Notes: generated by a model not told the origin, from the letters alone. Shown: positions 6,592 through 33,105, numbered from the stretch's first letter. The stretch: 36,728 nt of DNA from Chloroflexota bacterium (GCA_019136785.1 JAGVTM010000514.1:1-36728), one strand, 5' to 3'. Translations and numbers: made by a program.

Positions 6592-6597
6592 GTGGTT

Positions 6598-6850
6598 TGT
6601 AAATGGGGGGGGCAGGCCCCCATCCCCCAACCCCCTTCCCCCTAAAGGGGGAAGGGGGCTTAGGGCGCTACGCGCCCTTCGTTCCGGGCGACGCAGAGCG
6701 TCGCTATGTCTCATTCCACGCAGAGCGTGGGACGAGAAACAAGGGGGGCAGGCCCCTATCCCCCAACCCCCTTCCCCCAGGGGGAAGGGGGCTTTCGGAG
6801 AGGGCGAGGGGCGCCGCGCGCCCCTCGCCCTACATTACCCCTTCCCTGGC
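6598..6850. repeat. REP-like composite hairpin elements, family A (about 2 copies)
   Basis: Hairpin CCCCCTTCCCCC-n-GGGGGAAGGGGG occurs at 6631-6658 and again around 6767-6791. Hairpin GGCGAGGGGCGC-n-GCGCCCCTCGCC and the tail CTACATTACCCCTTCCCTGGC follow the second copy. The same element recurs at 9578-9685. Confidence 0.8.
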
Positions 6851-6866
6851 AATACCGTGCGACAAG

Positions 6867-9509
6867 ATGCGTGAGTCTGCTCTGGCGCAACCGCTGGCGG
6901 TTGAGAATATAGCCCGCCGTCCGAGTTTGTGGCGGAATCTGGGCAAATTTGTGGCAGTCCGAACGGTTGTGTTGGTGAGCGCGGTGGTAGCCGGCGTTTA
7001 CATTACGATTCTGATTGCCAACTACGGCGGCTACGTGGATGAGATTATGCGGGGGCGGATTGCGCAGAGCATTGATGGCATGATCATGGGGGGGTGGCTG
7101 CGGGACACGCCGACGGAAGAGAAGTTTGCCATTATTGAGCAGACGACGCTGGCGATGGAGGAGGCGGCCGGGCTGAATGAGCCGTTTTTGCTGCGCACGT
7201 TTCGCTGGCTGGGGGATGGGTTAACGTTAAATTGGGGCGAGTCTACGCGGCCTTTCTTCTACAATATGGCGGGGAGCAGCAGTAACAAAACGGATGTGAG
7301 GGGCATCGTTCTGGATCATTTGGCGCGCACCTTGTTGGTTTTTGGGCTGGCGAATGTGCTGCTGTTTTTCACAACCGTGCTGTTGGGGCTGGCTTTGACG
7401 CGCCACTATGGCTCGCGTCTGGACAGGTTGTTCGCTATTTTTTCGCCGCTGTCGGCGGCGCCCGCCTGGGTGTACGGCGTGCTGTTGAACATTTTCTTGC
7501 TGCGGGTGGTGAATGTGTCAGCAGGGGGGGCGTTTGATTTCTGGCCCAGCGAGTTTCGCTTTGCTTATCTGCCGGTGGTGTTGAAGAATCTGGGGCCGCC
7601 TTTCCTGGCTATTTTTATTGCCGGGTTGTTTCAGGGGGCATACGCCTGGCGCACTTTCTTTCTGGTCTATACGAGCGAAGATTACGTGGAGATGGCGCGG
7701 GCTAAGGGGCTTTCTGCCAGAACGGTGGAGCGGCGTTATGTGCTGCGCCCGGCGCTGCCGGGGATTGTGACCAGTTTTGCTTTGTTGAGCATGAGTTTGT
7801 GGCAGGAGATTATCGCGTTGGAGTATTTCTTCAACGTGGCGGGCATTGGGCGGCTGTTTATCACGGCTATCCGCGCGCTGGATACGCCGATGATTGTAGC
7901 GCTGGTGGTGACTTTTGCGTATCTGCTGGCGGTGACGGTTTTTGTGCTGGACGTTGTGTATGGGCTGTTGGATCCGCGCATCCGGGTGGGGAACGCGGGA
8001 CAGGGGGGGAATGTGGCTCCAGCAGGCGCGCGCCGCGGGCGGCGGCAGCGCCGCGGGCGCCCGCTACATCCGGTTCAGCCATCCCTGGCGCTCTCTACAG
8101 GGGAAATGCAGCTGCAGTCCCCTTCGTGGAGAGAACAACAGCAGCGAAAGTGGCAGCGGCTTAAGGAAACAGGGCGGCAAATCTGGGGCTATCCCACGGC
8201 GGTGATTGGGGCGGTTATCATTTTGGGGCTGGTGGGCGTGTCTATTTATACGGTGGCGACTATTCCCTACGAGCAGGCGATTGCGCTGTGGCGGGGAGAG
8301 GGGAATGTTTGGGCGCGCAATCCGCGCAACGCGCAGCCAACGTGGGTGAATGCGCTGCGCTTTAATAAGCTGCCGCCCACGATTATTCTGGACAGCCGCG
8401 AGGGGGAGGGGAATAAGAGGCGGCAGACTGTAACGGACGAGATTACGGAAATTACGTTTAGCTTTCCTTTTGATTATCCGTATAACGCCTTGCCGCAAGA
8501 TGCCAATCTTTATTTCTACGCCCAATATGAGGAGAAAGTGCCGCATCTGACGCTGACGTGGCTGACGCCAGATGGGCGGGAGTTACAGCTAGGGAGTCTG
8601 GCGACGCGCAGTTACCAGGCGTATTTGATGGGGCAAGACGAACGGTTGCAGCGGCGATTGGGGGGACAGCCGCCGCTGCAGGGGTTGTTTAGGGAACCGC
8701 TGACGGATACGGTACGGTCGCTGACGGAGCAGCGGGTAGCGCCGGGTCAGTATGAGCTGCAGATCAGCGCGCTGGTGTTTGAGGATGAGGCGGATGTGGA
8801 TGTGGAGTTTGTGTTGTTTGGACAGGTGCATGGGATTGCCGGCACGGACGCGCAACGACGCGATTTGATGGTGGCGCTGTTGTGGGGCGCACCTATCGCG
8901 CTGGCGTTTGGGGTGGCGGCAGCGCTGGTGACGTCTGTGAGCGGGATGTTTCTGGCGGCGGTGGGGGCGTGGTTTGGCGGGGGCGTGGATCGGGCGGTGC
9001 AGTTTTTGACGGAAGTGAATTTAATCTTGCCTTTCTTCCCGGTCAGCCTGATGATTTATACGCTTTACTCGAAGAGTATCTGGGTGATTCTGGGGGTGAC
9101 GGTGGCGCTGACTGTCTTTAGTAGTTCGGTGAAGACGTACCGCGCCGTTTTCTTGCAGATTAAGGAGTCGCCGTATATTGAGGCGGCGCGGGCGTATGGG
9201 GCGGGGAATTGGCGGATCATTCGCCGCTATCTGATACCGCGCATTGTGGCGGTGTTGATTCCGAAACTGGTGATTTTGGTGCCGGGTTACGTCTTTCTGG
9301 AAGCGACGCTGGCGTTCCTGGGGGTGAGCGATCCGGTGCTGCCGACGTGGGGGAAGCTGGTGGTGGCGGCTGTTTCGTATGGGATGCAAGCCAGGGTTTA
9401 TCATCTGGCGGTGGCGTCGCTGGGGCTGCTTTTTTTGACGGGGTTTGCGTTTTCGATGCTGGGGCTGGCGTTGGAGAGGGTTTTTGAGCCGCGGCTGCGG
9501 GATACGTGA
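6867..9509 (+). CDS. Fused ABC permease: DppB-like N-terminal half joined to DppC-like C-terminal half in one ORF
   Basis: The N-half is paralogous to ORF 1854-3014 (VYITILIANYGGYVDEI vs VYLTILIANMGGYVDQI; SEDYVEMARAKGLSARTVERRYVLRP). The C-half is paralogous to ORF 3011-4351 (YPTAVIGAVIILGLVG...ALWRGEGNVWARNPRNAQP; PYIEAARAYGAGNWRII). An Arg-rich ~45-aa linker joins them with no stop. The track start 6603 lies in REP sequence; ATG 6867 is the first plausible start. Confidence 0.8.
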   Translation: MRESALAQPLAVENIARRPSLWRNLGKFVAVRTVVLVSAVVAGVYITILIANYGGYVDEIMRGRIAQSIDGMIMGGWLRDTPTEEKFAIIEQTTLAMEEAAGLNEPFLLRTFRWLGDGLTLNWGESTRPFFYNMAGSSSNKTDVRGIVLDHLARTLLVFGLANVLLFFTTVLLGLALTRHYGSRLDRLFAIFSPLSAAPAWVYGVLLNIFLLRVVNVSAGGAFDFWPSEFRFAYLPVVLKNLGPPFLAIFIAGLFQGAYAWRTFFLVYTSEDYVEMARAKGLSARTVERRYVLRPALPGIVTSFALLSMSLWQEIIALEYFFNVAGIGRLFITAIRALDTPMIVALVVTFAYLLAVTVFVLDVVYGLLDPRIRVGNAGQGGNVAPAGARRGRRQRRGRPLHPVQPSLALSTGEMQLQSPSWREQQQRKWQRLKETGRQIWGYPTAVIGAVIILGLVGVSIYTVATIPYEQAIALWRGEGNVWARNPRNAQPTWVNALRFNKLPPTIILDSREGEGNKRRQTVTDEITEITFSFPFDYPYNALPQDANLYFYAQYEEKVPHLTLTWLTPDGRELQLGSLATRSYQAYLMGQDERLQRRLGGQPPLQGLFREPLTDTVRSLTEQRVAPGQYELQISALVFEDEADVDVEFVLFGQVHGIAGTDAQRRDLMVALLWGAPIALAFGVAAALVTSVSGMFLAAVGAWFGGGVDRAVQFLTEVNLILPFFPVSLMIYTLYSKSIWVILGVTVALTVFSSSVKTYRAVFLQIKESPYIEAARAYGAGNWRIIRRYLIPRIVAVLIPKLVILVPGYVFLEATLAFLGVSDPVLPTWGKLVVAAVSYGMQARVYHLAVASLGLLFLTGFAFSMLGLALERVFEPRLRDT

Positions 9510-9577
9510 GAAAAAAGAAGATTTCACCGCGAAGACGCGAAGGGCGCGAAGAAAAGAAAGAATACGGTGTGGTGGGA

Positions 9578-10000
9578 AAAGCCCCCCATCCCCCAACCCC
9601 CTTCCCCCCCAGGGGGGGAAGGGGGCTTTCAGAGAGGGCGAGGGGCGCTGCGCGCCCCTCGCCCTACATTACCCCTTCCCTGGCGAGGGCGCTGCGCGCC
9701 CTTGCTCATCATTACCCCTTCCCTGGCGAGGGTGCTGCGCGCTCTTGCTCAGCATTACCCCTTCCCTGGCGAGGGCGCTGCGCGCTCTTGCTCATCATTA
9801 CCCCTTCCCTGGCAATGGGGGCGGGATTACCCGATTATTTTCTCAAGCCCGATGGGGGGAAGGGGGCTTTCAGAGAGGGCGAGGGGCGCTGCGCGCCCCT
9901 CGCCCAAGGCGCTGCGCGCCCTTGCTCAGCATTACCCCTTCCCTGGCAATGGGGACGGGATTACCCGATTATTTTCTCAAACCCGATAGGGGGAAGGGAT
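9578..10000. repeat. Dense REP-like repeat cluster: family-A element, about 4 tandem ~43-bp units, and a ~133-bp spaced duplication
   Basis: The motif CATTACCCCTTCCCTGGC recurs at about 9668, 9710, 9753 and 9796 (period 42-43 bp) and again near 9930. GGGATTACCCGATTATTTTCTCAA occurs at about 9823 and 9957. All + strand ORFs here are repeat translations. Confidence 0.85.
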
Positions 10001-10041
10001 TTTATGCCTGGTCAGGCAATCAGAGTGGCTGGGGCTCTGCC

Positions 10042-13000
10042 TTAGATTGAGAGAACGCTGGCGCGGGCGTTTAGTTCTTCTAGCAGCACCAGGTGGTCGC
10101 CCAGGCGGTGGGTCAGGCGGAGCATCATCATGTCCACGTCGCGGAAACGGCCTAATTCTCGTTCCGCCAGAACCGCATCTACCAGGCGTGCTGACAGACG
10201 AATAGCCAGCAGGTCTTCGCGCGAGGCGGTGTTTAGATTTACTTCTGACGGGGCGGCGCTGGGATTGGTGAATGTGCCAGGGAAAGTTTGTTCTTGCTTT
10301 GTCAGCGTCGCCGCACCCGGCTGCAAGGTGATGATCTTGCTGCTGGCGGTGACCGTGGTGGGACGGTAGCTGGCGGGATTGGCAGCGTCATCATGAGGAT
10401 AGTGAGGCGTTATTTGCATGAACAGCAACACCGCTTTTTCATCGTCAAAGAGCGCTCTGTAGCGGGTGGCCAGCGTGTTTTCGTATGTTTTGAAGGTAGA
10501 CAGGTTGAGCGTGGGATGCATGGGGACCAGATTGCCGGCAACCCCCTGGCCAAAGAAACGGTCGCCAATCAAATGACCGCGATGATCGCCCGGCTGGTAG
10601 GCGGGCACACCGCCAGGCAAATTGCGCACAGCAGGCAGCGATTCTCGTTCCTCACCCTCTTTCACGTTGGTCACGTGGCCTGATGGGCCGGTGGCGCGTT
10701 CCAAACCATCCGCCGGATAGGTGGGGGCAATGCGGGGCACGATGCTCTCCAGCGCCATCTGCTCATGCTGCTGCGCGGTTGTGCCCGTCAACACGACCGG
10801 ATCAGAGAACTGCACCACCGTCAGGTCACGCCTGATTTTCACCGTATGGGCTCCCACAGGGCGCTCGTAAATGAATTCGCCCCCTGCGGCGGCGGGCGGC
10901 GTCTCGGCGGCTTCCCCGCCCAGCCCTAAAGCATTCAGGATGGCCTGACCCAGATTCAGGGCGCGCTCAATGAGCCAGTCAATGGCGCGATCTACTAACT
11001 GGCGCACGTCTTCGACCATCTCGCGGAGGCGGCGGCTGATGCCGCCTAGCCCGACTTGATTTGCCAGGAAGCCGATGGCAATGGGCAGCGCGCGGGCCAG
11101 GGCGCTTTCCAGAAAGCTGGCGGCCTGTTCGATGGCGCCGCGGGCAATGCCGGCAATGCCGCCCAGCACCGTGTTCACAATTTCCAGCATCTGCCGCAGG
11201 TATTGCATGAAGGATTCGATGGCGCGATAGATGGCGATCAGGCTGTTGACGACAGCCATGATGCCTGTGGGATCGAGCAGACTGAGCAGGCGAGCGCTGG
11301 CGGTGGTGATGATGGTGTTGGTGATCCAACCGATGACGCTGGTCAACACTGTTTGCCACAAATCGCTCAAGCGCTCCTGCAACTGTCGCCATAGTCCGCC
11401 AGGGCCTTCGTTAATGAGGGTGGTGATCCAGCCCCAGGCGGTTTCGGCAATCGCCAGCGCCCGGCGCAGCAGCGCCACCCGTTCAGGCCCAATGCGCGGG
11501 TTTTGCTCCATGCGCTGGAAGATGCGTTCCGTGGTGATGTCCAGAATTTGCAGCACAAACCCCAAAATGCCGCGCAGGCTGAACTCGGTAGGCGGGGTGA
11601 GCCCGGCTTCCTGCACCTGCCCAAACAGCCAGCCCATGACGCCGTCTAGCAAATGTTGACCAATGTTGCCAAAGAATTTGACGAACCCTTCTTTGACGGC
11701 GCGCAACAGATTGATGAGGAAGCCCACCGGGTCTTGCAGGATGCTGCTGAAGACGTTAAGGGCATTTTGCAGGATGTTCGTCACTAACTGCGGCGGGATA
11801 CCCATCAGTTCCAGCAAGGCGCTGAAAAATGTCCAGGCTGCGCCAAACAGATTGCCGTCCACGAAAACCTGGCGCAAGATACGCATGGCCAGGCTGCTAA
11901 TGCGCGCCCAAATGTCGGGAATTTGCAACAGTTGGCTGAAAATGGGGATGTGGCTGAGAATGTTCTCAATCAGGAAGTTCTTGATGGGGTCCAGAATACA
12001 CTCTGGAATGGCGCTCCACAAGCCGCCGGTGATCAGGTCGGGAAGCTGTCCCAACAAGTCGCCGAGAACGCTGATTAGCTGCTGCAGCAGGTTGAGGATT
12101 GGTTCGATGAAGCCAGCCAGATAAACCAGACCATCGCCCAGGAAACCAAAGAGGCTGGCGACGGTTTCTTGCGCCCACTGCCCCAGACTGGCGACACCGT
12201 CAGCAACCCATTGCAGCAGGCTGGTGAGGTGGCTGGTGAGGCTGTTCTGGCTTAAGGCGTTGACGAAGCCGGTCACCTGCTCTACGACGCTGCCAATGAC
12301 GCTGGCGACCCAACTGCCGGCATTGACAATGCTTTCACGGACAGAGGCGGCGGTGGCCAGCACTGCCGGCAAAATCTCATCCCGCAGGCTCGTTTGCTGT
12401 TCGGCTACCCCCTCAGGCTCCTGCATGGTGTTGACCATCGAGCCGGCGTTTTCCAGCCAGCCCTGAATCGTTTCGCGCAAGTTCAAGATGGCATCCAGGG
12501 GCAAGACCGCCATCACCTGGTCAATGACGCCACGAATGGGGGCGATCACCGGTTCTAAGAGCGCCAGGATGGCATCCCAGGCCTCCCCCAATTTTTGCTG
12601 CACCCAGTCCAGCAGCCCACCTTCGCTGTCTTCGGTATCCGCGCCAATGCCCAACTGCTCTTTGACCCACTCCCAGGCGCTGGCAAAGGCGTCGCGCACG
12701 GGCTGCGTCCACTCCCAGATGTCGCTGGCAATGTCCTGAATATCTTGCCAGATTTCGCCGGCTACTTCGCCGATCCAATCCACCACAGGCGCGCCAAAAT
12801 CAGCCCACAAATCGGAGAAGAATTGCCCCACCGGTTCGAAGAATTCGACGATGGCGTTCCAGGCATCCCCAGCCATTTGGGAGATGGTTTCTTGCAGCCG
12901 CCCCACGGCGGCAAACAAGGGTTCGCAGTCGCCCGCCAGCAGCGGTTCCAGGATTTCCTGCGACGCCGCCAGCAGCGCGTCAAAGGTGGCGAGAAAGCCC

Positions 13001-13872
13001 GCCAGAATGCCGCTGTCTTCCCCCACCCCACTAAACAGATTGTCTATGACGCCGCCGAGCAGGTTCTGCAGGTAATCAAAGATGCCGCCGGCAGCATGAA
13101 TATCGCGGATCAATTGCGCCAACTGCGGCGCCAGTTCTTCGATGATGCTCCAGGCGGTATCAGCCGTGAATTCGATCACGTCGCTGGCCAGCTCTGCGCC
13201 AGCCTCGATAGCTGCGCCGCCGGTGTATGACCAGGCTGTGGCCAGCGCTTCGCCGACTTCGACGCGCTGAACAGCCGGCGTTCCACCGCGCTGCTGCTGC
13301 ACTACGTGGGCGGATTCGTGGGCCATGAGGCGGGCGTCGCTGCTAGATTCACCCGCGCCCAGGAAGATGTGATTGCCGGCAGTGAAGGCGCGGGCAGAGA
13401 GCGTGGCGGCGGCGGCAGCAGCCTGGGAATCTTCGTGAACGCGCGCCTGCCCCAGGTCTGCGCCGACGCGCGGTTCCAGGCGTCCGCGCAGGTCGGGCGA
13501 CAGCGGGCGACCGGGGTGTGGCTGGCGAATGGTCGCCGCCACGTCGGGCGTGACGGGCGGCGGGGTCGCGCCGCTCCTTTTGGGGGATGGAGAAGGATTG
13601 CCGGCGACGATGTCTGCCTGCCGTTCAAAGGCGTCACCTGGTTGATTGACAGTTAGCTCAGATGCTGCCGGCAGCGGGTTCGCCGATTTAGCCATGACAG
13701 TCTGGCTGACAGCGTGATTTCCGCCTCCTTTTTGCAGCCGCTGCGATTCACTTACCGTTCGGTGTTTACGCGCGCCTATTGGCGCGCGGCGCGGCGGGGA
13801 AGCAGTCGTCTGTGTGGGCGATGCGACCGGGGAGGATTTCGTGTGGGCGAGGGTTTTTGTGGCAGCGATCAT
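10042..13872 (-). CDS. Putative CIS payload: N-terminal DUF4157 (HExxH) domain, long acidic helical middle, C-terminal His-Me-finger nuclease (Endonuclease_NS_2-like) and HhH DNA-binding motif
   Basis: DUF4157-like block: DAFERQADIVAG...PLSPDLRGRLEPRVGADLGQARVHEDSQAA...ARAFTAGNHIFLGAG...LMAHESAHVVQQQ, with HESAH at 13303-13329. C-terminal nuclease block: GDHRGHLIGDRFFGQGVAGNLVPMHPTLNLSTFKTYENTL...ITPHYP (about 10420-10600). ComEA-like HhH: VNLNTASREDLLAIRLSARLVDAVL. The start lies 10 nt after the upstream stop; an alternative start is MAKSANP. Confidence 0.75.
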   Translation of the reverse strand: MIAATKTLAHTKSSPVASPTQTTASPPRRAPIGARKHRTVSESQRLQKGGGNHAVSQTVMAKSANPLPAASELTVNQPGDAFERQADIVAGNPSPSPKRSGATPPPVTPDVAATIRQPHPGRPLSPDLRGRLEPRVGADLGQARVHEDSQAAAAAATLSARAFTAGNHIFLGAGESSSDARLMAHESAHVVQQQRGGTPAVQRVEVGEALATAWSYTGGAAIEAGAELASDVIEFTADTAWSIIEELAPQLAQLIRDIHAAGGIFDYLQNLLGGVIDNLFSGVGEDSGILAGFLATFDALLAASQEILEPLLAGDCEPLFAAVGRLQETISQMAGDAWNAIVEFFEPVGQFFSDLWADFGAPVVDWIGEVAGEIWQDIQDIASDIWEWTQPVRDAFASAWEWVKEQLGIGADTEDSEGGLLDWVQQKLGEAWDAILALLEPVIAPIRGVIDQVMAVLPLDAILNLRETIQGWLENAGSMVNTMQEPEGVAEQQTSLRDEILPAVLATAASVRESIVNAGSWVASVIGSVVEQVTGFVNALSQNSLTSHLTSLLQWVADGVASLGQWAQETVASLFGFLGDGLVYLAGFIEPILNLLQQLISVLGDLLGQLPDLITGGLWSAIPECILDPIKNFLIENILSHIPIFSQLLQIPDIWARISSLAMRILRQVFVDGNLFGAAWTFFSALLELMGIPPQLVTNILQNALNVFSSILQDPVGFLINLLRAVKEGFVKFFGNIGQHLLDGVMGWLFGQVQEAGLTPPTEFSLRGILGFVLQILDITTERIFQRMEQNPRIGPERVALLRRALAIAETAWGWITTLINEGPGGLWRQLQERLSDLWQTVLTSVIGWITNTIITTASARLLSLLDPTGIMAVVNSLIAIYRAIESFMQYLRQMLEIVNTVLGGIAGIARGAIEQAASFLESALARALPIAIGFLANQVGLGGISRRLREMVEDVRQLVDRAIDWLIERALNLGQAILNALGLGGEAAETPPAAAGGEFIYERPVGAHTVKIRRDLTVVQFSDPVVLTGTTAQQHEQMALESIVPRIAPTYPADGLERATGPSGHVTNVKEGEERESLPAVRNLPGGVPAYQPGDHRGHLIGDRFFGQGVAGNLVPMHPTLNLSTFKTYENTLATRYRALFDDEKAVLLFMQITPHYPHDDAANPASYRPTTVTASSKIITLQPGAATLTKQEQTFPGTFTNPSAAPSEVNLNTASREDLLAIRLSARLVDAVLAERELGRFRDVDMMMLRLTHRLGDHLVLLEELNARASVLSI

Positions 13873-17256: not shown

Positions 17257-19488
17257 TTAGCGGCGGCGGGCCTGGGTGTAGTAGTCGGCGAAGGCGGCGC
17301 GGGTGAGGGGGCGGCCCAGTTTGTCCATTTCGCGCACGACGCCTTGAATCAGGTGGGCCATGCCAATGGGTTCGTCCGTTTCGGCAGCCAGGAATGCGGC
17401 GGCCAGGACGCAGTTTTTGATGTTGCCACCGCTTAGTTCAAATTGGGCTGACAGGAAGGCAAAGTCCACGTCGTCCGCACGCGGCGCGGCGGCAGGGAAC
17501 ATGCCGCGCCACAGGCGCTGGCGGTCTTCGATGGTGGGCAGGGGGAAGTCTATGACGTATTGCATACGACGGGTGAAGGCTTCGTCCAGGTTCTGGCTGA
17601 AGTTGGTAGCCAGGATGGAAACGCCTTCGTACTCTTCCATTTTTTGCAGCAGGTAGCTGATTTCGATGTTGGCGTAGCGGTCGTGGGCGTCGCGGACTTC
17701 GGAGCGTTTGCCAAAGAGGGCGTCGGCTTCGTCGAAGAAGAGGACGACGTTGGCGGCGGCGGCTTCGTCGAAGATGCGGCTGAGGTTTTTCTCGGTTTCG
17801 CCGACGTATTTGCTGACGACGGCGGAAAGGTCAATTTTGTAGATGTCCAGGCCAAGGGAGCGGGCGAGAATGCCGGCAGCCATGGTCTTACCTGTGCCCG
17901 ATGGCCCGGAAAAGAGGACGTTCAGCCCGCGGCCCAATGCCAGTTTGCGCCCAAAACCCCACTGTTCGTACACTGTGTGGGCGTGACGCACCTGGCTTTC
18001 AATGGCCCGCAGTTGGGTAAGCTGTGCGCGCGGCAGCACCAGATCGTCCCATTCATAGGCGGAGACAATTTTCACAGCCAGTTTGTTCAGGGCAGGATTG
18101 GACTGCTGCCGGGCGCCTTCAAACCAATCCTGGCGGGTGGGGTGGGCGTGGGGCCCGTCGCGCAGCCAGGCGCGCTGCCTGGCGGCGATGGCTGCCTGGG
18201 CAATCTGGCCGGGGGTGAGACGGAAGCGTCCGGCGAGTTCGGCGGGCGTGTCCCCTGACGGGGTCTGCGTGTCCCCTGACGGGGTCTGGGCGACCTGCCC
18301 GTTCAGCCGCGCCGCCCACAACTGCCGCCGCAAGGGGACGTCCGGCAGGGGGAAATGCACGATGACGGGGGCAGAGACATAGGAAGGCAGCGTCCAGGGT
18401 TGGTCGGCAGAGAGGATGACGCTGCCGGGCCAGTGCGCCCAGACGGCGGCGCGGGCGGTTTCGGAGAGCGCTTCGGCTTCTGCCAGATGCAGCAATGCGC
18501 CGTACAGGCGGGCTTCGCGCACGGCGGCGCGCCAGCAAGCGGCGACGCGGTCTTCTGGCAGGTATGCCAGGCGGGGCGCTTCGACGACTAATAGGGCGCG
18601 TTCGCCTAGAGCATGGGCCACGGCGGCGGCGGCGGCGCGCCGCCCGCTGCCGGGGCGACCGCAAAAGAGGGCCGGCGGTGCGGCGGCAGGGGCCTGCCAG
18701 GCAGGGGGCCGCCAGAGGGATGCCAGATGGCGCAGCGCCTGGCGGGTGGGCGCAGGAACAGCCAGGTCTTCCAGGCAGCCGTCAGCCTGCATCCAGTAGG
18801 CGTATTCCATCAACTGCGGGTCGAGGGCGTCCTGTTCCAGGAGGTAGTCAACGATACGGTCATCCAGTTTCAGGGAGCGATCAATCAGGGGTAGGAACGA
18901 TTCGCCTTCGCCCGCGCCTATATGCAGCAGCCGCTCGAAAACCAGCGGGGATGCGGCGGTGAAAAGGGCGCGCACGGCGGTCTCGTGGCTGCGCGGCAGC
19001 AACCGCAGGGCCAGGGCGGGGGTGAGGCAGCGGCGGCTGACGTCGTCTTGCAGATAGGCGTAGACACGGCCAAAGCGGGGGTCAACTTCGGGGGCTAATA
19101 GTAAGAGGACGAGTTCCAGGGCCAGGGACGACAGGTCGAATTGGCGGGTCAATTGTATGGGGCGCAGCAGGGCAGTGGTGGCGGCGACGCGGGCGGCAAT
19201 GGCGGCGTCGCGGGCGAGAATGGCGGCTTCTAAATCTATGGCCTGGTCGGAGTGGGGCAGGGTGACGCCGTGCAGCGCGGCTAATGCCTGATCTACTTCT
19301 GGCTCGGAGAGGAAGAGGCCGAGGAAGGATTCGTTGACGCTGGGACCGCGCAACAGCCGCGCCAGCAGCACTTCCCGATGCAGCCGCAGCGCCAGCAGCG
19401 CCCAATAGTCGCTCAGGTAGTCGTGGGTGCTGGCGTAAGGGGTTGCCTGTTGTCTGCTGTCTGTTGATTGTTGGTTAGTTTTGTTCAT
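17257..19488 (-). CDS. CIS-associated double-AAA+ ATPase (Afp15/Pvc15-like)
   Basis: The C-terminal AAA+ domain has Walker A GPSGTGKTMAA (17881-17910), Walker B VVLFFDEADALF, and SKYVGETEKNL. An upstream degenerate P-loop reads CGRPGSGRRAAA. The N-terminal helical domain is typical of this family. Confidence 0.85.
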   Translation of the reverse strand: MNKTNQQSTDSRQQATPYASTHDYLSDYWALLALRLHREVLLARLLRGPSVNESFLGLFLSEPEVDQALAALHGVTLPHSDQAIDLEAAILARDAAIAARVAATTALLRPIQLTRQFDLSSLALELVLLLLAPEVDPRFGRVYAYLQDDVSRRCLTPALALRLLPRSHETAVRALFTAASPLVFERLLHIGAGEGESFLPLIDRSLKLDDRIVDYLLEQDALDPQLMEYAYWMQADGCLEDLAVPAPTRQALRHLASLWRPPAWQAPAAAPPALFCGRPGSGRRAAAAAVAHALGERALLVVEAPRLAYLPEDRVAACWRAAVREARLYGALLHLAEAEALSETARAAVWAHWPGSVILSADQPWTLPSYVSAPVIVHFPLPDVPLRRQLWAARLNGQVAQTPSGDTQTPSGDTPAELAGRFRLTPGQIAQAAIAARQRAWLRDGPHAHPTRQDWFEGARQQSNPALNKLAVKIVSAYEWDDLVLPRAQLTQLRAIESQVRHAHTVYEQWGFGRKLALGRGLNVLFSGPSGTGKTMAAGILARSLGLDIYKIDLSAVVSKYVGETEKNLSRIFDEAAAANVVLFFDEADALFGKRSEVRDAHDRYANIEISYLLQKMEEYEGVSILATNFSQNLDEAFTRRMQYVIDFPLPTIEDRQRLWRGMFPAAAPRADDVDFAFLSAQFELSGGNIKNCVLAAAFLAAETDEPIGMAHLIQGVVREMDKLGRPLTRAAFADYYTQARRR

Positions 19489-20184: not shown

Positions 20185-21762
20185 CTACGGCAGAATAATA
20201 TGCAACTGGCGGTTTTGCAGCCAGGGGAGGGGGCCCTGGGGGCCGTCGCGGGAGGCGATGCGGAGGAGGATACCCAGGGGGGCCTGGTGGAGGTGGATTT
20301 CGAGGGCGTTGGCGGAGAGGTGGAGGTGGCCGGGTAAATGAATGAATTGGCGGATGAGGGCGGCGGCGGGGGACGCCGCGGTGGCGGGGGAACTGCCGGC
20401 AAAGCCGCGCAGACCGGCGGCAAAGTGACGCAGCAGCAGTAGGGCCGCGCCGCTGCCGGGCCAGTCGCCCAGGATGGCAGCGGCATCTGCCGCTGCTCGC
20501 AGTTCGGTTTCATCTGTCCACGCCGCCAGGTCGGGCCAGGAGATGGGCTGGGCGCGCGCCTGTTCTGCCAGGTGGTCGGGGACGCCGGACAGCCAGGCGG
20601 CAGCGCCGTCACCCCATGCCAGCGGCGCATGGTCGCGTCCGACCAGACGCAGCAGGAGTTGGTAGATGCCGGCATTTCCCAACGTCTCATACCAGCCCAA
20701 TTCGCGCACAAAGGGCAGCAGCAGGCCCAACCCCGCAAACGACGTCGCCAGCGAGCGGCCCGTCGTCGTTGATTGTTGCCTGTTTTCTGTTGTCTGTTGA
20801 TTATTTTCCGCCAGCCGGGCCACATAAGCGCGCCCCTGGCCGGTGGCCATCATGATTTGCAGCCAGCGGCGGGGGGCTTCCAGGTCGCTGTCTAAGGCGT
20901 CGAGGAGGGGTTGGAGGGGGGCAATGCCGGCAATTTCGCCCGCTGCCAACGCTGCCCATAAGAAAGGCGCCGGGCGGGCTGCCCATAAGTGGCGCAGCCA
21001 GGCCAGGTGGGTACAAACGGCGGCGACCCAGCTTTGGGCTGCCAACCCTGGCTGGGGGATGGTCGCCGCCAGGAAGAGGCGCAGCAGATTGCGCGCCAGG
21101 GCGTCGCGCCCGCCGCGCTCCAGGGGGACGGGGCGCAGGCGGGGCAGGAGGGCATCGAGTTGGGCGGCGGTGGCGATGCCGGTTGGTTCGCCCCAGCCCA
21201 ACGCTGACCAAAGCAGGGTCACGTCGGCGCGGGTCATCTGGCGCAGCAGGGGTTCTAGCTGGCGGGATTGCTGCAGACGGCGGGCGACGGGCAGGAGGAG
21301 TTCAGGGCGGGCGCCGAGCAGGTAGGCGGCGGTTTGCCCCGTTGCCAACCCGCGCAGGGGGGTAAATTCGGCGTAGACCCAGCCTCTGTCTACGGACCAG
21401 GCGCGCCCGGTGAGCAGGTCGGTGAGGAAGGCGGCGAGAAAATGGGCAGGGTCGTCAAAGCGGACGACTTCTGTCTCTGCGCCGGTGAGGAGGGCGCGGG
21501 TGACGGCGCGGAGGAGAAGCTGACTCCAGCGGCGGGTAATGTCGGCGTCGGACATGCCGGCAATGTCTACCCATAGGTTGAGTTCGAGGCGGCGGATGCG
21601 GTAGACGGCGGTTTGGTCGCGGGCGGGGGGCTGCAGGCGTCCGTTGAGTTCTGCCGGCAGGCGCTGCCGCACGAGGGCGTCCAGGCGTTGTTGGAATGCC
21701 TGGGGGTCGGGGGCGCCGGCGGGTAGGAAGTAGTTGGCGGTGAGCCTGTCAATGGTGAGCAT
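20185..21762 (-). CDS. Hypothetical protein; candidate CIS tape-measure (Afp14 position)
   Basis: It sits immediately upstream of the ATPase apart from the inserted GxxExxY cassette. It is Ala/Leu-rich and helical, and its N-terminal pattern (QQRLDALVRQRLPAELN...VYRIRRLELNLWVDIAG) resembles proteins annotated as CIS tape measure. The call is positional plus weak motif memory. Confidence 0.45.
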   Translation of the reverse strand: MLTIDRLTANYFLPAGAPDPQAFQQRLDALVRQRLPAELNGRLQPPARDQTAVYRIRRLELNLWVDIAGMSDADITRRWSQLLLRAVTRALLTGAETEVVRFDDPAHFLAAFLTDLLTGRAWSVDRGWVYAEFTPLRGLATGQTAAYLLGARPELLLPVARRLQQSRQLEPLLRQMTRADVTLLWSALGWGEPTGIATAAQLDALLPRLRPVPLERGGRDALARNLLRLFLAATIPQPGLAAQSWVAAVCTHLAWLRHLWAARPAPFLWAALAAGEIAGIAPLQPLLDALDSDLEAPRRWLQIMMATGQGRAYVARLAENNQQTTENRQQSTTTGRSLATSFAGLGLLLPFVRELGWYETLGNAGIYQLLLRLVGRDHAPLAWGDGAAAWLSGVPDHLAEQARAQPISWPDLAAWTDETELRAAADAAAILGDWPGSGAALLLLRHFAAGLRGFAGSSPATAASPAAALIRQFIHLPGHLHLSANALEIHLHQAPLGILLRIASRDGPQGPLPWLQNRQLHIILP

Positions 21763-22277: not shown

Positions 22278-23150
22278 TCAAATGGTTATCGTGAAGCGGC
22301 GGCAGAACCAGTCCATGTCGCGCTGGCGGCGGGTGAGGAGGCAGGCGCGGTGGGATAGGGTGTCGTCGAGGAAGGCGCGGGCCAGGCTGCGGTGGAAGTC
22401 GGGATGAGCCATCATGGGGCGCAGGGCGCGGGACAGGCGGGCTTCGTCGAAATGGGAGAGCGCCAGGCGCAGTTTGTTGTAGAGGGCCTGGCTGGCGTCT
22501 ACGGCGTAAGGATGGCGCGGGCGGAACAGGTGGAAGACCAGGCTGTCGGGTTGGGCCAGGATGCGGTAGCCATATAGCCAGAGACGCAGGCAGAGTTCGA
22601 TGTCTTCGCTGCCCCAGCGGGTCATGCCGGCATCATAGCCGCCCACTTCGCGAAAGACAGCGGCGGGCACTGCCTGGCAGGCGCCGATGTGGAAGGGGAC
22701 TTCGGTCACAGCGGCGGGTGGGGGCAGCCAGACGTTTTCCAGGCTGGCGTCTTGCCAGGCGACACCGCAGGCGCGGGTGGTGATTTCGTGAATGCCGGCA
22801 AAAACGGGGCCGGCCATGCCCACGCCCGCGGCAGACAAAGCGGACACGAGCGGGGCTAACCAGCCAGGGGGCACGTAGCAGTGGGCATCCAGAAAGACCA
22901 GCGCCTGCCCGCGGGCGTGCGCGGCGCCCAGGTTGCGCGCGCCGGCGATGCCTAATCCCTGGCCGCGTACCAGCCGCAGGCGGGCATCGTCACCGCGCCC
23001 CAGGGCTGCCTGGGCGCTGCCATCATCGGAACCGTCGTCTACAATGATCACCTCCAGGTCTACGTCGCCGCTGTTCTGGCGCACGTAAGCGACGGTGTCT
23101 ACCAGGTTTTGGCCTTCGTTGTGTGCCGGCAGAATCACGCTGACGTGCAT
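22278..23150 (-). CDS. Family 2 glycosyltransferase
   Basis: VSVILPAHNEGQNL...LEVIIVDDGSDDGS and the VFLDAHCYVPPGW (DxH) motif. The start overlaps the upstream stop (TAATG at 23148-23152). Confidence 0.85.
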   Translation of the reverse strand: MHVSVILPAHNEGQNLVDTVAYVRQNSGDVDLEVIIVDDGSDDGSAQAALGRGDDARLRLVRGQGLGIAGARNLGAAHARGQALVFLDAHCYVPPGWLAPLVSALSAAGVGMAGPVFAGIHEITTRACGVAWQDASLENVWLPPPAAVTEVPFHIGACQAVPAAVFREVGGYDAGMTRWGSEDIELCLRLWLYGYRILAQPDSLVFHLFRPRHPYAVDASQALYNKLRLALSHFDEARLSRALRPMMAHPDFHRSLARAFLDDTLSHRACLLTRRQRDMDWFCRRFTITI

Positions 23151-25057
23151 TAGCCGCGCCTCATCATGCCGATGGCGTTGTTCTTTAATTCCGCCACGCG
23201 CACTTCAGAAATACCCAGGATTTGGGCGGCGCGATCCACAGGCAGGGCGGCAAACTCCAGCACGCTGGTGATGCCATTCTGGCGCAGCTTATCGCCGCGC
23301 ACCTCGCCCACGCCCAGCACATCCTCCACCGGGCGCATGGCGCCGGCTACCAGGTCAAACTCCTGCGGATCAAAGCCAAATTCCAACGGGGGGCGCGTGC
23401 CAATAATCCCGGTGGGGAGGATGCCTGTTGGCAAGATACCTGTGGGGGTGATGCCCGTGGGGATGATGCCCGTGGGGATAATGCCCGTGGGAATAATCCC
23501 TGTGGGAATGATGCCCGTGGGAATGATGCCCGTGGGGATGATGCCCGTGGGGATGATGCCCGTGGGAATGATACCCGTGGGGATGATGCCCGTGGGGATA
23601 ATCCCCGTCGGGGGAATGCCCGTCGGCTGCTGCGGCAGGGTGACGAAGAGGAACACGCCGAAGTCGGCGCTGTTTAGGGCGGGGCGACCGTCGGCAAACA
23701 GCACCAGGAAGGGAATCTGGATGGGTTGGGGCAGCGGGAAAACGGTGAGCAGCAGGGTGATCTCCGTGGGAGTGCTGGAGACGATGTTGGCGCTGACGCC
23801 GCCGCCCAGGAAGGCGACTTCCATGGCGCCGGAGAGCCCCTGACCCAGGATGCGCACGTTTTCATAGATGATCGGTTCCTCGCGGTTGCCTTCCACCTGG
23901 GTTGGCTGGATGGCGTCAATCCGTCCAGGGGGCGGAGGCGCTTCCTGGCAGCGGCAGCGCACGTACTCTTGCAGCAGCCAGCCGTTGAGCAGACGGCGGC
24001 GGTCGGTCCAGTCGTCAATAGTCTCAATGCCCTCGCTGCCGACGGTGATGGTGGCTAACACCAGGCCATTGTCATCGGCGTCCAGCGCCGGGGGGCAAGG
24101 GACGTGCGTTTGACCGCAGACGATAGCTTCCAGTTGCTCGCAGGTAAGCCCCTGTTGGTGGGAGTCGGGCAGGCAGCAGACAATTTCCAGGCGGTAGCCT
24201 TCGCGCACGCGGGTATAATCATAACTGCTGCCGGGGGGGGCGCATTTTGCCGGCACAAGCGGCTGCGAACAAGTCAACTCCTCGTCGGGATAAACCACCA
24301 GATAGACCAGATCGCCCGCCGTTGTCTCCCAGCAAATTTGCAGCAGCAGCGTCTCATTTTGCGGGGCTGTGATCGTTATGTTGGTGATGCCCCCGCCAGA
24401 CAGACGCACCATCTCCGCCTGCCCGCCTTGCCCACTGGTCTGCGCGGAATCTACCAGCGCCCCGGCGATGTCAAACGCTTCCAACAGCACCGGGCCAGCA
24501 CCGCACATCAGGGTCAGCGTTGCCGCCGACGCAGCCTGGGGCAAGGTTATGGTCGTCTGCAAAAAGCAGTTGAAGCCAACGAATTCCCCCCACCCCTCAA
24601 TGCGCGTGCGGGGCACGATCACCCCGCTGCGCCAACCGGTAAAGACAGCCCCCTGGAAGGTGACGGGATTAGGGCCTTCGGTGTCTGGCTCCATTTCCAT
24701 GAAATTGACACAGGTAAGGACAGGTTCTGCGCCCGCGCCTGGTTCGGCGCAGGGGTCTGGCGCGCCCAGACAAGCCTCCACGCCCGCCTGAATGTCGAAG
24801 GGGGGGGCGTCAGCGGGGATGACCACCTCATCCCCCTGCGGCGTCAAGCCATATCCCGGCGCCACCTGTACCTGCCAGGGGGAACCCTCCGAGCCGCTGA
24901 CGGTTGCGCCGCAAACAACGCCCCAACCATGCAGGGCGCGGTTATGCCGGCGCAGCCGTTCGCGCAGGTAATTCTGACCCAGGTTGAGGTCGGCTGCCGT
25001 CAACTGCTGCCGCTCAACGTATCTTGGCCTGAGCAAGCCATTGCCATTATTTGCCAT
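23150..25057 (-). CDS. Fibre-like / receptor-binding candidate, paralog 2: Cys-rich core, IPT/TIG-like domain, (PTGII)x15 repeat, C-terminal HhH (DUF4332-like)
   Basis: It shares the N-terminal core with ORF 25067-27871 (HGWGVVCG vs HGVGTVCG; YTRVREGYRLEI vs YNRVREGYELHL). IPT-like stretch: IDAIQPTQVEGN...ILGQGLSGAMEVAFLGG. HhH tail: VLGVGEVRGDKLRQNGITSVLEF...ILGISEVRVAELK. Confidence 0.6.
   Translation of the reverse strand: MANNGNGLLRPRYVERQQLTAADLNLGQNYLRERLRRHNRALHGWGVVCGATVSGSEGSPWQVQVAPGYGLTPQGDEVVIPADAPPFDIQAGVEACLGAPDPCAEPGAGAEPVLTCVNFMEMEPDTEGPNPVTFQGAVFTGWRSGVIVPRTRIEGWGEFVGFNCFLQTTITLPQAASAATLTLMCGAGPVLLEAFDIAGALVDSAQTSGQGGQAEMVRLSGGGITNITITAPQNETLLLQICWETTAGDLVYLVVYPDEELTCSQPLVPAKCAPPGSSYDYTRVREGYRLEIVCCLPDSHQQGLTCEQLEAIVCGQTHVPCPPALDADDNGLVLATITVGSEGIETIDDWTDRRRLLNGWLLQEYVRCRCQEAPPPPGRIDAIQPTQVEGNREEPIIYENVRILGQGLSGAMEVAFLGGGVSANIVSSTPTEITLLLTVFPLPQPIQIPFLVLFADGRPALNSADFGVFLFVTLPQQPTGIPPTGIIPTGIIPTGIIPTGIIPTGIIPTGIIPTGIIPTGIIPTGIIPTGIIPTGITPTGILPTGILPTGIIGTRPPLEFGFDPQEFDLVAGAMRPVEDVLGVGEVRGDKLRQNGITSVLEFAALPVDRAAQILGISEVRVAELKNNAIGMMRRG
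23404..23632. repeat. 15 tandem 15-bp units encoding the PTGI(I/L/T/P) pentapeptide
   Basis: Units follow the pattern gcccgtgggRatRat. Copies differ mainly at synonymous positions. Confidence 0.9.
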
Positions 25058-27871: not shown

Positions 27872-27893
27872 AAACAACTCCTTGGAATAGTGA

Positions 27894-27935
27894 TCAGTGG
27901 TCAGTGGTCAGTGGTCAGTGGTCAGTGGTCAGTGA
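27894..27935. repeat. Heptanucleotide microsatellite: TCAGTGG x5 plus a degenerate sixth copy
   Basis: Perfect copies span 27894-27928. The sixth copy, TCAGTGA, contains the stop codon of the gpI-like gene. The array ends about 10 nt before the SD of the fibre-like gene. Confidence 0.9.
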
Positions 27936-32291: not shown

Positions 32292-32313
32292 AGCCGTGTC
32301 CTTATTCGGATTT

Positions 32314-32346
32314 AGAAATCGGGTTTTTGTGAAAAACCCGATTTCT
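32314..32346. promoter_or_regulatory. Perfect 15-bp stem / 3-nt loop hairpin 22 nt upstream of the baseplate-J start
   Basis: agaaatcgggttttt-gtg-aaaaacccgatttct closely resembles the hairpin at 36619-36649. Confidence 0.4.
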
Positions 32347-32354
32347 GGCGTAGA

Positions 32355-32426
32355 AAGGGCGTATGCAATGCAATACACCTGGGCGTATGCAATACGCCCC
32401 TACCGTTGGGCGTATGCAATACGCCC
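32355..32426. repeat. Short palindromic repeats GGGCGTATGCAATACGCCC (two full copies plus one degenerate copy)
   Basis: gggcgtatgcaatacgcccctac occurs twice, at about 32380 and 32407, with a degenerate copy at about 32358. Confidence 0.8.
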
Positions 32427-32813
32427 CTACTCGTTGATGTAAAAGGGGTAGACCAGGTTATGAAAGGCGTTGTTGGCGCGGATGCGGTAGTCTACGTGAA
32501 TGAAGAGGGTGTTGGGCGATTCCTCAGGGCTTTCCACGCGCACATCCAGCACGTCAATGCGCGGTTCCCAACGCAGCAGGGCGCGGCGCACTTCCTGGGA
32601 AATGGCGGCGACGGTGTTGGCATTGTTGGGGGCGAAGACGTAGTTGTGGATGCCGCAGCCAAAGTGCGGTTCCATGATGCGGCTGTTGGGCGGGGTGCTG
32701 AGGATAATCCAGATGGCCTCGGCCACGCTGTCCGCGCCGCTGACGTAAGAAAGCCCGCCGCGCCCGTTGACGCGAATGGGGAATTTCCAACCTGTGCCTA
32801 GAAAGTCAGCCAT
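32427..32813 (-). CDS. gp25-like baseplate wedge protein (GPW/gp25 family, Afp9-like)
   Basis: FLGTGWKFPIRVNGRGGLSYVSGADSVAEAIWIILSTPPNSRIMEPHFGCGIHNYVFAPNN matches the family pattern. ATG 32813 is preferred; the track extension to 32966 crosses REP hairpins. Confidence 0.85.
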   Translation of the reverse strand: MADFLGTGWKFPIRVNGRGGLSYVSGADSVAEAIWIILSTPPNSRIMEPHFGCGIHNYVFAPNNANTVAAISQEVRRALLRWEPRIDVLDVRVESPEESPNTLFIHVDYRIRANNAFHNLVYPFYINE

Positions 32814-32850
32814 GTCAATCACCTGGAACCATGAATAAGTGGCGGTGGGT

Positions 32851-32921
32851 GGCATCCCCGCCTGCGGCGGGGATGCCACTTGTTTGTGGGCAGTTTTGGG
32901 CGCATACGCGCCCAAAACTGC
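32851..32921. repeat. REP-like hairpin pair, family B (same architecture as 21852-21935)
   Basis: GGCATCCCCGC-ctgc-GCGGGGATGCC (32851-32877) and GCAGTTTTGGGCGC-ata-CGCGCCCAAAACTGC (32890-32921). Confidence 0.8.
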
Positions 32922-33105
32922 CCAGGAAGGAAAGGCTTGTAAAGGGATGATGCCGGCAAAATCCACTGCCTGGTCGCCTGTCGGAGAACCACAAAAATGG
33001 GACGCTGATGACGCAGATAAGAGCCGATTTAGTCCTGATGAATCCGTTCAATCTGCGCTTTATCAGCGTTATCAGCGGGCTATTAAAGACTTTTCCGACA
33101 GGCTG

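Follow-up and report, generated by a model that had tools for sequence, protein, structure and literature searches.

Results

An effector gene closes an eCIS operon

The subject of this study is an effector gene at the 3′ end of an operon for an extracellular contractile injection system (eCIS) in a Chloroflexota bacterium (GCA_019136785.1 JAGVTM010000514.1:1-36728). The stretch analysed, 36,728 nucleotides (nt) long and referred to below as the window, is one whole contig. The operon genes lie on the same strand, and the effector is their 3′-terminal cargo gene, starting 10 nt past the stop codon of a gene for a protein of 1104 amino acids (aa). Its product consists of an N-terminal region rich in Pro, Ala, Ser and Thr, a DUF4157 domain, a long helical carrier and, beyond a junction, a nuclease cassette followed by a tail derived from a helix-hairpin-helix (HhH) (Table 1). 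An earlier reading of this DNA from the sequence alone (the sequence-only reading) had proposed this open reading frame (ORF), with a DUF4157 head carrying an intact HExxH motif and a His-Me finger nuclease of the Endonuclease_NS_2 type at the C-terminus. The ORF was found exactly as given, together with the strings quoted from it, and both domain assignments were borne out by the Pfam matches described below.

Table 1. Features of the window: the effector and its parts, followed by the flanking DNA and the remaining genes of the operon.
Feature	Coordinates	Strand	Extent or basis
Effector gene	10042-13872	-	1276 aa, coordinates including the stop codon; final gene of the eCIS operon
N-terminal region, Pro/Ala/Ser/Thr-rich	13507-13872	-	aa 1-122; presumed loading sequence
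DUF4157/eCIS_core zincin-like domain	13285-13506	-	aa 123-196; HESAH, aa 185-189, at 13306-13320
Conserved all-helical carrier	10918-13284	-	aa 197-985; tape-measure-like aa 208-605; "pre-toxin" module aa ~680-985
Cassette junction ILNALGLGG	10915-10941	-	aa 978-986; then Gly/Ala/Pro linker, aa 987-1000
Endonuclease_NS_2-type (His-Me finger) cassette	10261-10872	-	aa 1001-1204
Catalytic motif DHRGH...NLVPMHPTLNLSTFKTYEN	10477-10587	-	aa 1096-1132; DHRGH, aa 1096-1100
HhH-derived C-terminal tail	10045-10245	-	aa 1210-1276; "NLNTA" helix kept, both Gly-x-Gly hairpins lost
Spacer with REP-like palindromic and direct repeats	9510-10041		between effector and permease genes
Convergent BPD_transp_1 permease	6603-9509	+	end, at 9509, of a convergent Opp/Dpp-type ABC transporter operon
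Upstream protein, 1104 aa	13883-17197	-	N-terminal QxxGNxA motif, common with the effector
WHD + AAA+ ATPase, Afp15/Pvc15/Alg15 type	17257-19488	-	Pfam WHD 9.6e-35, AAA 1.3e-30
PDDEXK_3 (PD-(D/E)XK nuclease family), 129 aa	19722-20111	-	PF13366 E 3e-40
Tape-measure-like protein	20185-21762	-	CIS_TMP 22.7 bits, below the cut-off of 27.8
GT2 (family 2) glycosyltransferase	22278-23150	-	Pfam
635-aa protein	23150-25057	-	weak HHH_5 match at C-terminus
Collagen-repeat fibre-like protein	25067-27877	-	Pfam
Tail_P2_I + NHL repeats	27929-29974	-	Pfam
Baseplate_J	29952-32378	-	Pfam
gp25	32427-32966	-	Pfam
DUF2169	33520-34905	-	Pfam
Spike OB domain	34934-35443	-	Pfam
GPD hub	35440-36603	-	Pfam

N-terminal residues and eCIS_core domain

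Residues 123-196 matched the Pfam family PF13699 (eCIS_core, formerly DUF4157; "eCIS core domain") with an E value of 5.1e-23, and the domain was modelled confidently by AlphaFold (predicted local distance difference test, pLDDT, of 89-96). The HExxH motif is intact, and its residues H185, E186 and H189 were invariant in alignments of 25 and of 38 relatives. DUF4157 was defined as an eCIS core domain by Geller et al. (2021; PMC8213781), who described proteins with an N-terminal DUF4157, a "very long linker" and a C-terminal toxin, usually lacking an immunity gene (PMC8213781).

The preceding residues (aa 1-122) are probably disordered, judging from a composition in which Ala, Pro, Thr and Ser account for 48%. 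They include two short motifs: LQKGGGNHA (aa 46-54, nt 13711-13737), which resembles VQRQAGNQA at aa 53 of the 1104-aa neighbour, and PGDAFERQAD (aa 78-87, nt 13612-13641), whose PGDxxExxAD pattern was present in 30 of 100 relatives. Cargo loading in AlgoCIS requires a disordered domain at the N-terminus (NTD) and the AAA+ protein Alg15, DUF4157 being dispensable (preprint 10.64898/2026.05.27.728243), and on this model we infer that the N-terminus of the effector acts in loading. The version of the protein given by the database and gene caller (P0001, 1217 aa) begins at Met60 and drops LQKGGGNHA, the region in question being 13696-13872 on the minus strand. The long N-terminus is considered real because P0002, a protein 86% identical, aligns from residue 1; a well-placed Shine-Dalgarno sequence was found at neither start (residue 1 or Met60).

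The C-terminal nuclease cassette

At the C-terminal side, aa 1051-1162 matched PF13930 (Endonuclea_NS_2) with an E value of 2e-11 and a score of 44.6 bits, against a cut-off of 27. H1100 is presumed to be the general base, and N1123 or N1114 a metal ligand. The conserved motif of the cassette reads DHRGHLIGDRF...NLVPMHPTLNLSTFKxxEN; the RGH containing H1100 is kept in every cassette homologue covering that position, and the alignment of cassettes shows no variation at M1118, H1119, N1123, E1131 and N1132. In addition, the spacing of +23 between H1100 and N1123 equals that between the catalytic H528 and the Mg-binding N551 of EsaD (PMC9616950). A profile of the cassette weakly matched EssD (8guo, E 0.12) and Spd1 (E 0.57), and a single-sequence search of the PDB returned nothing relevant.

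A word-based search recovered only eight close cassette relatives and P0004, and 49 cassette homologues at E<1e-30 came from exhaustive profile searching of 1.84 billion representatives. Nearly all of these 49 form the C-terminus of proteins of 1000-1500 aa that have the last ~300 aa of the carrier, and eCIS_core was detected in four of the eight cassette relatives tested.

The gene calls at two family loci, L088 (P0114) and L089 (P0116), are fragmented, the AAA ATPase and the effector being split and P0116 beginning partway through the nuclease domain; an intact version of the L088 gene, of 1263 aa, is found in L093. Short proteins that look like stand-alone cassettes probably result from frameshifts in the assemblies and do not represent orphan cassettes.

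The HhH-derived tail

A ComEA-like HhH had been proposed to follow the nuclease, a claim of which the homology stands and the canonical form does not. HHH_3 matched aa 1210-1249 of the target below threshold (E 0.01; 16.4 bits, cut-off 27), and no Gly-hydrophobic-Gly (GhG) hairpin was found in its last 95 aa. On the other hand, the cassette family profile matched the HhH of ComEA (8dfk, E 1.9e-5; 8dss, E 2.1e-5) and that of EEPD1 (E 7.5e-12), about ten cassette relatives have a canonical double HhH with GhG hairpins, and relatives with significant PF12836 or PF00633 matches exist. The ComEA-type homology of the tail therefore appears to hold at the level of the family profile only. The hairpin-less tail, which retains the "NxNTA" helix, is the majority form among same-cassette proteins, and AlphaFold predicted it as four helices (pLDDT 80-92). 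The tail is a derivative of the HhH, and DNA binding should not be taken for granted in it.

A conserved helical carrier connects head and toxin

The sequence-only reading had described the ~800 aa between the two ends as acidic, Trp-rich helical repeats, and this description was kept except for the repeats. Residues 197-1000 contain 93 Asp and Glu against 37 Lys and Arg, together with 26 Trp (3.2%), and the AlphaFold model is nearly pure helix after DUF4157, the longest of its single helices having 73 residues, and has a more compact part at aa ~660-990 (pLDDT 73-87). Internal repeats were rejected, since self-BLAST of aa 197-1000 gave no off-diagonal match at E<=10 and no clear periodicity was found in the spacing of Trp in the middle region.

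Tape measure profiles of the PHROG database matched aa 208-605 (phrog_1272, 4.3e-23; phrog_58, 3.2e-22; phrog_4200, 4e-18; phrog_1535, 6e-18), which suggests a relationship between the carrier and the tape measure proteins of phages. The viral Foldseek matches were headed by tape measure and minor tail proteins, only at E>=0.03 and with template modelling (TM) scores of ~0.1, and three of 2.9 million viral contigs held a full family member.

A search of 5.8 billion proteins retrieved 111 relatives of 1100-1600 aa, which have aa ~70-985 in common and diverge at their C-termini; the family as a whole numbers more than 2400 members. C316, C625 and several Trp residues were invariant in the alignments of 25 and 38 relatives, and because the relatives share these residues across alignments, the middle region is regarded as a conserved module and not as a linker. 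Its part at aa ~680-985 is kept even in distant relatives and in nearly all same-cassette proteins. The codons of C316 (12925-12927) and C625 (11998-12000) lie on the minus strand; the 38 relatives in which both cysteines are invariant come from many phyla, and the protein is otherwise nearly free of Cys. The pair may form a disulfide or a metal site.

The cassette is exchanged at a defined junction

Homology to the target stops at aa ~965-1015 in nearly all relatives. The 86% identity of P0002 extends through aa 980, the two proteins being unrelated beyond a break that comes after the shared ILNALGLGG. When the window was compared with its sister contig, that of P0002 (L002; 84% identical), the DNA was collinear at 76-86% identity outside one block (window 6595-10906, L002 6630-7716), one edge of which, at window position 10907, corresponds to target codon ~989. 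This break in collinearity shows that the cassette was replaced between close relatives. Across the family, the C-termini carry PF13930 in about a third of cases, and also PF14412 (AHH) or PF14410 (GH-E), many being without a recognised domain. The protein thus has the layout of a polymorphic toxin, with a conserved carrier, a sharp junction and a variable C-terminal toxin. The window and L002 represent a natural pair differing by a clean cassette swap, and this type of breakpoint would be useful for engineering cargo exchange.

No immunity gene accompanies the effector in the window

The absence of an adjacent immunity gene, as claimed in the sequence-only reading, was confirmed: between the effector and the convergent permease gene there are repetitive extragenic palindromic (REP)-like repeats and no credible ORF. 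The repeat units of this spacer recur at 6604-6850. Its minus-strand ORFs are all of 28 aa or less and are translations of repeat units, as are its plus-strand ORFs of 140-201 aa, and no terminator-like site was found there on the strand of the effector. The block swapped between the window and L002 holds no immunity-like gene in either of the two. The search for immunity genes covered the 36.7 kb of genome in the window, where no EsaG-like gene was found. Small ORFs within the operon were considered as hidden immunity genes and rejected, one being PDDEXK_3 and the others giving no family match.

Immunity genes occur at some loci of the carrier family

The analysis covered 57 loci of the carrier family at which the gene is complete and the sequence extends far enough downstream. 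At 35 of the 57, an ORF of at least 90 aa starts on the same strand between -30 and +100 nt from the stop codon; these ORFs fall into 31 unrelated clusters. The clustering of cassettes joins them through short local matches, and only pairwise statements are made here: L044 and L060, for instance, are alike in both cassette type and downstream ORF type. A Pfam scan covered 20 of the 35 downstream ORFs. It identified Imm11 at L005, GAD-like with T6SS_Tdi1_C at L057 and L063, DUF4241 at L062, DUF6882 at L064 and HEAT_2 at L044, L046 and L049; DUF4241, DUF6882 and HEAT_2 are families that may be linked to immunity. The downstream ORF of L032 is another DUF4157 effector.

Among loci with nuclease cassettes, a SUKH/SMI1_KNR4 gene follows the PF13930 cassette of L085 at +10 nt, a tightly coupled ORF of 202 aa follows the PF13930-type cassette of L086 at +12 nt, and the L088/L092/L093 lineage, which has the cassette type of the target, has a conserved WD40-like ORF of 316-320 aa at +9 to +17 nt. 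No recognisable immunity gene was found at the nuclease-cassette loci of the window, L001, L002, L003, L013, L016, L066, L084, L087 and L094. The proposition that PF13930 cassettes in the carrier family never have immunity is refuted by L085 and weakened by L086. A cognate partner for the cassette type of the target was sought and rejected: the downstream ORFs of L088 and L089 are mutually unrelated, homologues of either are absent from the window, and the WD40-like ORF is confined to its lineage. Altogether, the carrier family uses classical immunity genes, yet often does without them, even for related nuclease cassettes; most relatives with a nuclease cassette lack one.

Discussion

A probable cargo toxin whose production would not need immunity

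We consider it probable, at about 0.8, that the effector is an eCIS cargo toxin; as to self-protection, the reading that we prefer is that its production does not need immunity. On the model of AlgoCIS, the Photorhabdus virulence cassette (PVC) and Streptomyces Tme, the AAA+ ATPase of the operon would recognise the N-terminus of the effector. Known systems suggest that the protein would then be threaded, for the most part unfolded, into the lumen of the tube along its tape-measure-like carrier, expelled by sheath contraction and refolded in the recipient cell, where the nuclease would degrade DNA. The producer would be protected by rapid sequestration or unfolding of the cargo, and release of the particles probably costs its life. 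Immunity genes in the carrier family would protect kin from incoming particles and be present only where the producer's own kind can be struck.

The missing immunity gene had been set in the sequence-only reading against the DNases of type VII secretion systems (T7SS) and contact-dependent inhibition (CDI), said to be always paired with one. The absence itself stands, and the contrast is the wrong baseline, because the gene is eCIS cargo, for which missing immunity is commonly reported (PMC8213781). The gap had also been presented as an open question, and as such it is a published puzzle: Geller et al. (2021) named the lack of immunity genes an "intriguing mystery" and suggested production just before lysis, or a protective DUF4157 with temporal or spatial inactivation of the toxin (PMC8213781).

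Comparison with known systems

One close counterpart is Tme (BN159_7576) of the Streptomyces davawensis contractile injection system (CIS), characterised by Nagakubo et al. (2024; PMC11126660) as a spike-associated protein in which DUF4157 and a tape-measure-like region are joined to a DRGH/H-N-N endonuclease. Like the target, it has an N-terminal DUF4157, a long region remotely homologous to tape measure proteins and a C-terminal His-Me endonuclease with (D)RGH and conserved Asn residues (DHRGH, N1114 and N1123 in the target; the enzyme of Tme is Mg-dependent). In both, the C-termini are replaceable, and an immunity gene has been reported for neither (PMC11126660). The two were compared by description only, and they differ in several respects: Tme has 2247 aa, is encoded directly upstream of the baseplate genes and carries an EndA-like nuclease, whereas the target, of 1276 aa, is encoded at the 3′ end behind the AAA+ ATPase, in an operon that also has a distinct tape-measure-like gene, and combines a PF13930 nuclease with an HhH-derived tail. 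The synteny of the Tme type, in which the largest ORF lies immediately upstream of the baseplate genes, is not seen here.

Xu et al. (2022; PMC8894135) showed the lumen of the AlgoCIS tube to be filled by Cgo1 and Cgo2, both of them DUF4157 proteins. Cgo2 (ALPR1_12690, Algoriphagus machipongonensis; also PROCIS preprint 2026) shares with the target an NTD (disordered in Cgo2, probably so in the target), DUF4157, a long C-terminal domain (CTD), a size of ~1230-1350 aa and its place in an eCIS cluster. The genus Algoriphagus has members of the carrier family in more than 20 species; many of these members carry PF13930, some PF12836, and in A. yeomjeoni (L013) members 41-46% identical to the carrier of the target take the position of Cgo2. 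The nuclease cassettes of Algoriphagus, however, are not close to that of the target, and the CTD of Cgo2 has no reported function. P0191 (1232 aa), a candidate for the AlgoCIS Cgo2, was rejected as metagenome-derived, and Cgo2 of strain PR1 is at most a putative member of the family.

The eCIS-associated toxins (EATs) (Geller 2021, PMC8213781; Danov et al. 2024, PMC11297309) likewise have an N-terminal DUF4157, a long middle and a C-terminal toxin; these papers treat the middle as a linker, whereas that of the target is conserved as a carrier and has a defined junction. With the EsaD/EssD-EsaG pair of the Staphylococcus aureus T7SS, in which DUF600 confers immunity (PMC9616950), the target shares PF13930, the +23 His-Asn spacing and the C-terminal position of the nuclease in a polymorphic protein. 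EsaD differs in being delivered by a T7SS and always paired with EsaG, the target belonging to an eCIS and its profile match to EssD being weak (E 0.12). Both the architecture (Geller 2021; Tme 2024; AlgoCIS Cgo2) and the puzzle of missing immunity (Geller 2021) had thus been published before.

Alternative explanations and weaknesses of the proposal

A cognate immunity gene, such as an orphan SUKH, Imm or EsaG-like gene, might be encoded elsewhere in the genome, of which 36.7 kb were seen, and protect the producer in the classical way. The SUKH/SMI1_KNR4 pairing at L085, the coupled 202-aa ORF at L086 and the conserved 316-320-aa ORF found with the target's own cassette type in the L088/L092/L093 lineage speak for it. 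We regard it as unlikely, though by no means negligible, since immunity genes normally travel with their cassette and the swapped block holds none in the window or in L002; moreover, homologues of the L088 and L089 ORFs are absent, the small operon ORFs are PDDEXK_3 or of no family, and at least nine other nuclease-cassette loci are equally without an immunity gene. It is also conceivable that the system acts on its own population, its particles working inside or on the filaments of the producer, for regulated death or release of extracellular DNA (eDNA), immunity being deliberately lacking. The nearest named relative of the carrier comes from Ardenticatena maritima (L003), a filamentous member of Chloroflexota, and the hydrophobic, probably membrane-spanning end of the 1104-aa neighbour could anchor the system. 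Such a role would follow the example of the S. davawensis CIS, whose Tme has the same three-part architecture and no reported immunity gene (PMC11126660). The collagen-repeat fibre-like protein and the Tail_P2_I protein with NHL repeats suggest binding to an external target, and the position of the gene, at the 3′ end behind the ATPase, is not that of Tme directly upstream of the baseplate genes, all of which makes this explanation rather improbable.

Self-inhibition until delivery, with the carrier, DUF4157 or the hairpin-less tail masking the nuclease until cleavage or refolding activates it inside the target cell, would agree with the invariance of HExxH across phyla, which points to some conserved activity, with the conservation of the hairpin-less tail as a variant and not simply a product of decay, and with the DUF4157-based temporal or spatial inactivation proposed by Geller et al. 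(PMC8213781). Autoinhibition by the middle region had been offered in the sequence-only reading; it found no support and is disfavoured by the toxicity of full-length Tme in E. coli, which depends on the catalytic His (PMC11126660). As the toxicity of Cgo1 is independent of its HExxH motifs (PMC8894135), DUF4157 is dispensable for AlgoCIS loading, and the model gives no structural sign of occlusion, its active-site region being unreliable, we hold self-inhibition to be very unlikely. Finally, the strong PHROG matches, together with a separate tape-measure-like gene (20185-21762) scoring below the Pfam cut-off, could mean that the effector is a true tape measure, a length ruler that incidentally carries a nuclease and is not a dedicated cargo. 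This seems highly improbable to us, because the relatives L085 and L090 have, next to the family member, a CIS_TMP gene of their own with a significant match, and because the gene follows the ATPase instead of preceding the baseplate genes and has a C-terminus as polymorphic as those of toxins.

Several points weigh against the proposal of an eCIS cargo toxin produced without immunity. The loading, injection and nuclease activity of the effector are predictions from sequence and analogy, and the protection of kin is an inference, not a demonstration. The PHROG profiles are the sole basis for relating the carrier to phage tape measure proteins: the tape measure models of Pfam and NCBIfam did not match the effector, and Foldseek of the model of aa 100-1000 found nothing significant in the PDB or BFVD. 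In the AlphaFold model of aa 986-1276 the mean pLDDT is 68, falling below 50 in the catalytic loop, and Foldseek of the cassette model against the PDB gave no significant match, the best being EXOG, NucA and Serratia nuclease (E 0.06-0.3). Since the predicted fold is unreliable at the active site and these matches are not significant, the nuclease assignment relies on profiles and on the conservation of the motif. Genes for sheath and tube fall outside the window, and the system is no more than presumed to be complete and to be extracellular, not cytoplasmic, in its mode. Lastly, because L085 pairs a related cassette with SUKH, the unlikely case of an immunity gene elsewhere in the genome counts here too.

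If the cargo-toxin reading is right, the locus is a further example of a widespread modular eCIS cargo, in which a loading signal and DUF4157 are combined with a tape-measure-like carrier and an exchangeable toxin. It is of value chiefly for comparison, as family members with and without immunity genes offer a handle on how eCIS producers tolerate their own toxins. As a long shot, the presence of immunity might report the victim of the particle: effectors paired with Imm11, Tdi1 or SUKH would be aimed at the producer's own kind, and those without immunity at unrelated organisms or at the producer's own filaments, in a Tme-like lysis or DNA release. By the same speculation, the tail might no longer bind DNA and have been repurposed as a brake or a refolding aid.

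Other genes of the operon and its surroundings

The ATPase with a winged-helix domain (WHD) is presumed to be the cargo loader, by analogy with Alg15, which is needed for cargo loading. The 1104-aa neighbour of the effector is kept in L002 as a protein of 1064 aa. It gave weak matches to tape measure PHROGs at aa 452-667 and has a Lys/Glu-rich stretch near its C-terminus, where a hydrophobic stretch is probably membrane-spanning; the protein is possibly a second cargo, or possibly a membrane anchor. A PD-(D/E)xK-like string, "RLDL...EIGEIKP", spotted in it by eye, had no support from Pfam.

Within the eCIS operon, the PDDEXK_3 gene separates the tape-measure-like gene from that of the AAA+ ATPase. 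The 635-aa protein has a counterpart of 620 aa in Ardenticatena maritima (L003 2921-4783), for which PF14520 is given in the precomputed annotation; a motif of the DNA-binding type is therefore found in a conserved eCIS component, its match in the window being weak.

Homologues of the GT2 protein, of ~720-790 aa, directly follow the effector at three distant loci, whatever the type of cassette (L001 14228-16576, L031 4745-7105, L072 2767-4920), that of L001 being Methyltransf_24+Glycos_transf_2. They represent a recurrent eCIS accessory gene, which is probably not an immunity gene.

The convergent permease gene (968 aa, two BPD_transp_1 domains) is a fused double permease flanked by the same REP-like repeats on both sides, at 6604-6850 and 9570-9998. 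As its listed start at 6603 falls within the repeats, the true start is probably further downstream. The gene is missing from the otherwise collinear L002 and shows 65-75% DNA identity to the two permease genes upstream, as if a paralogue bounded by REP-like repeats had been inserted or deleted.

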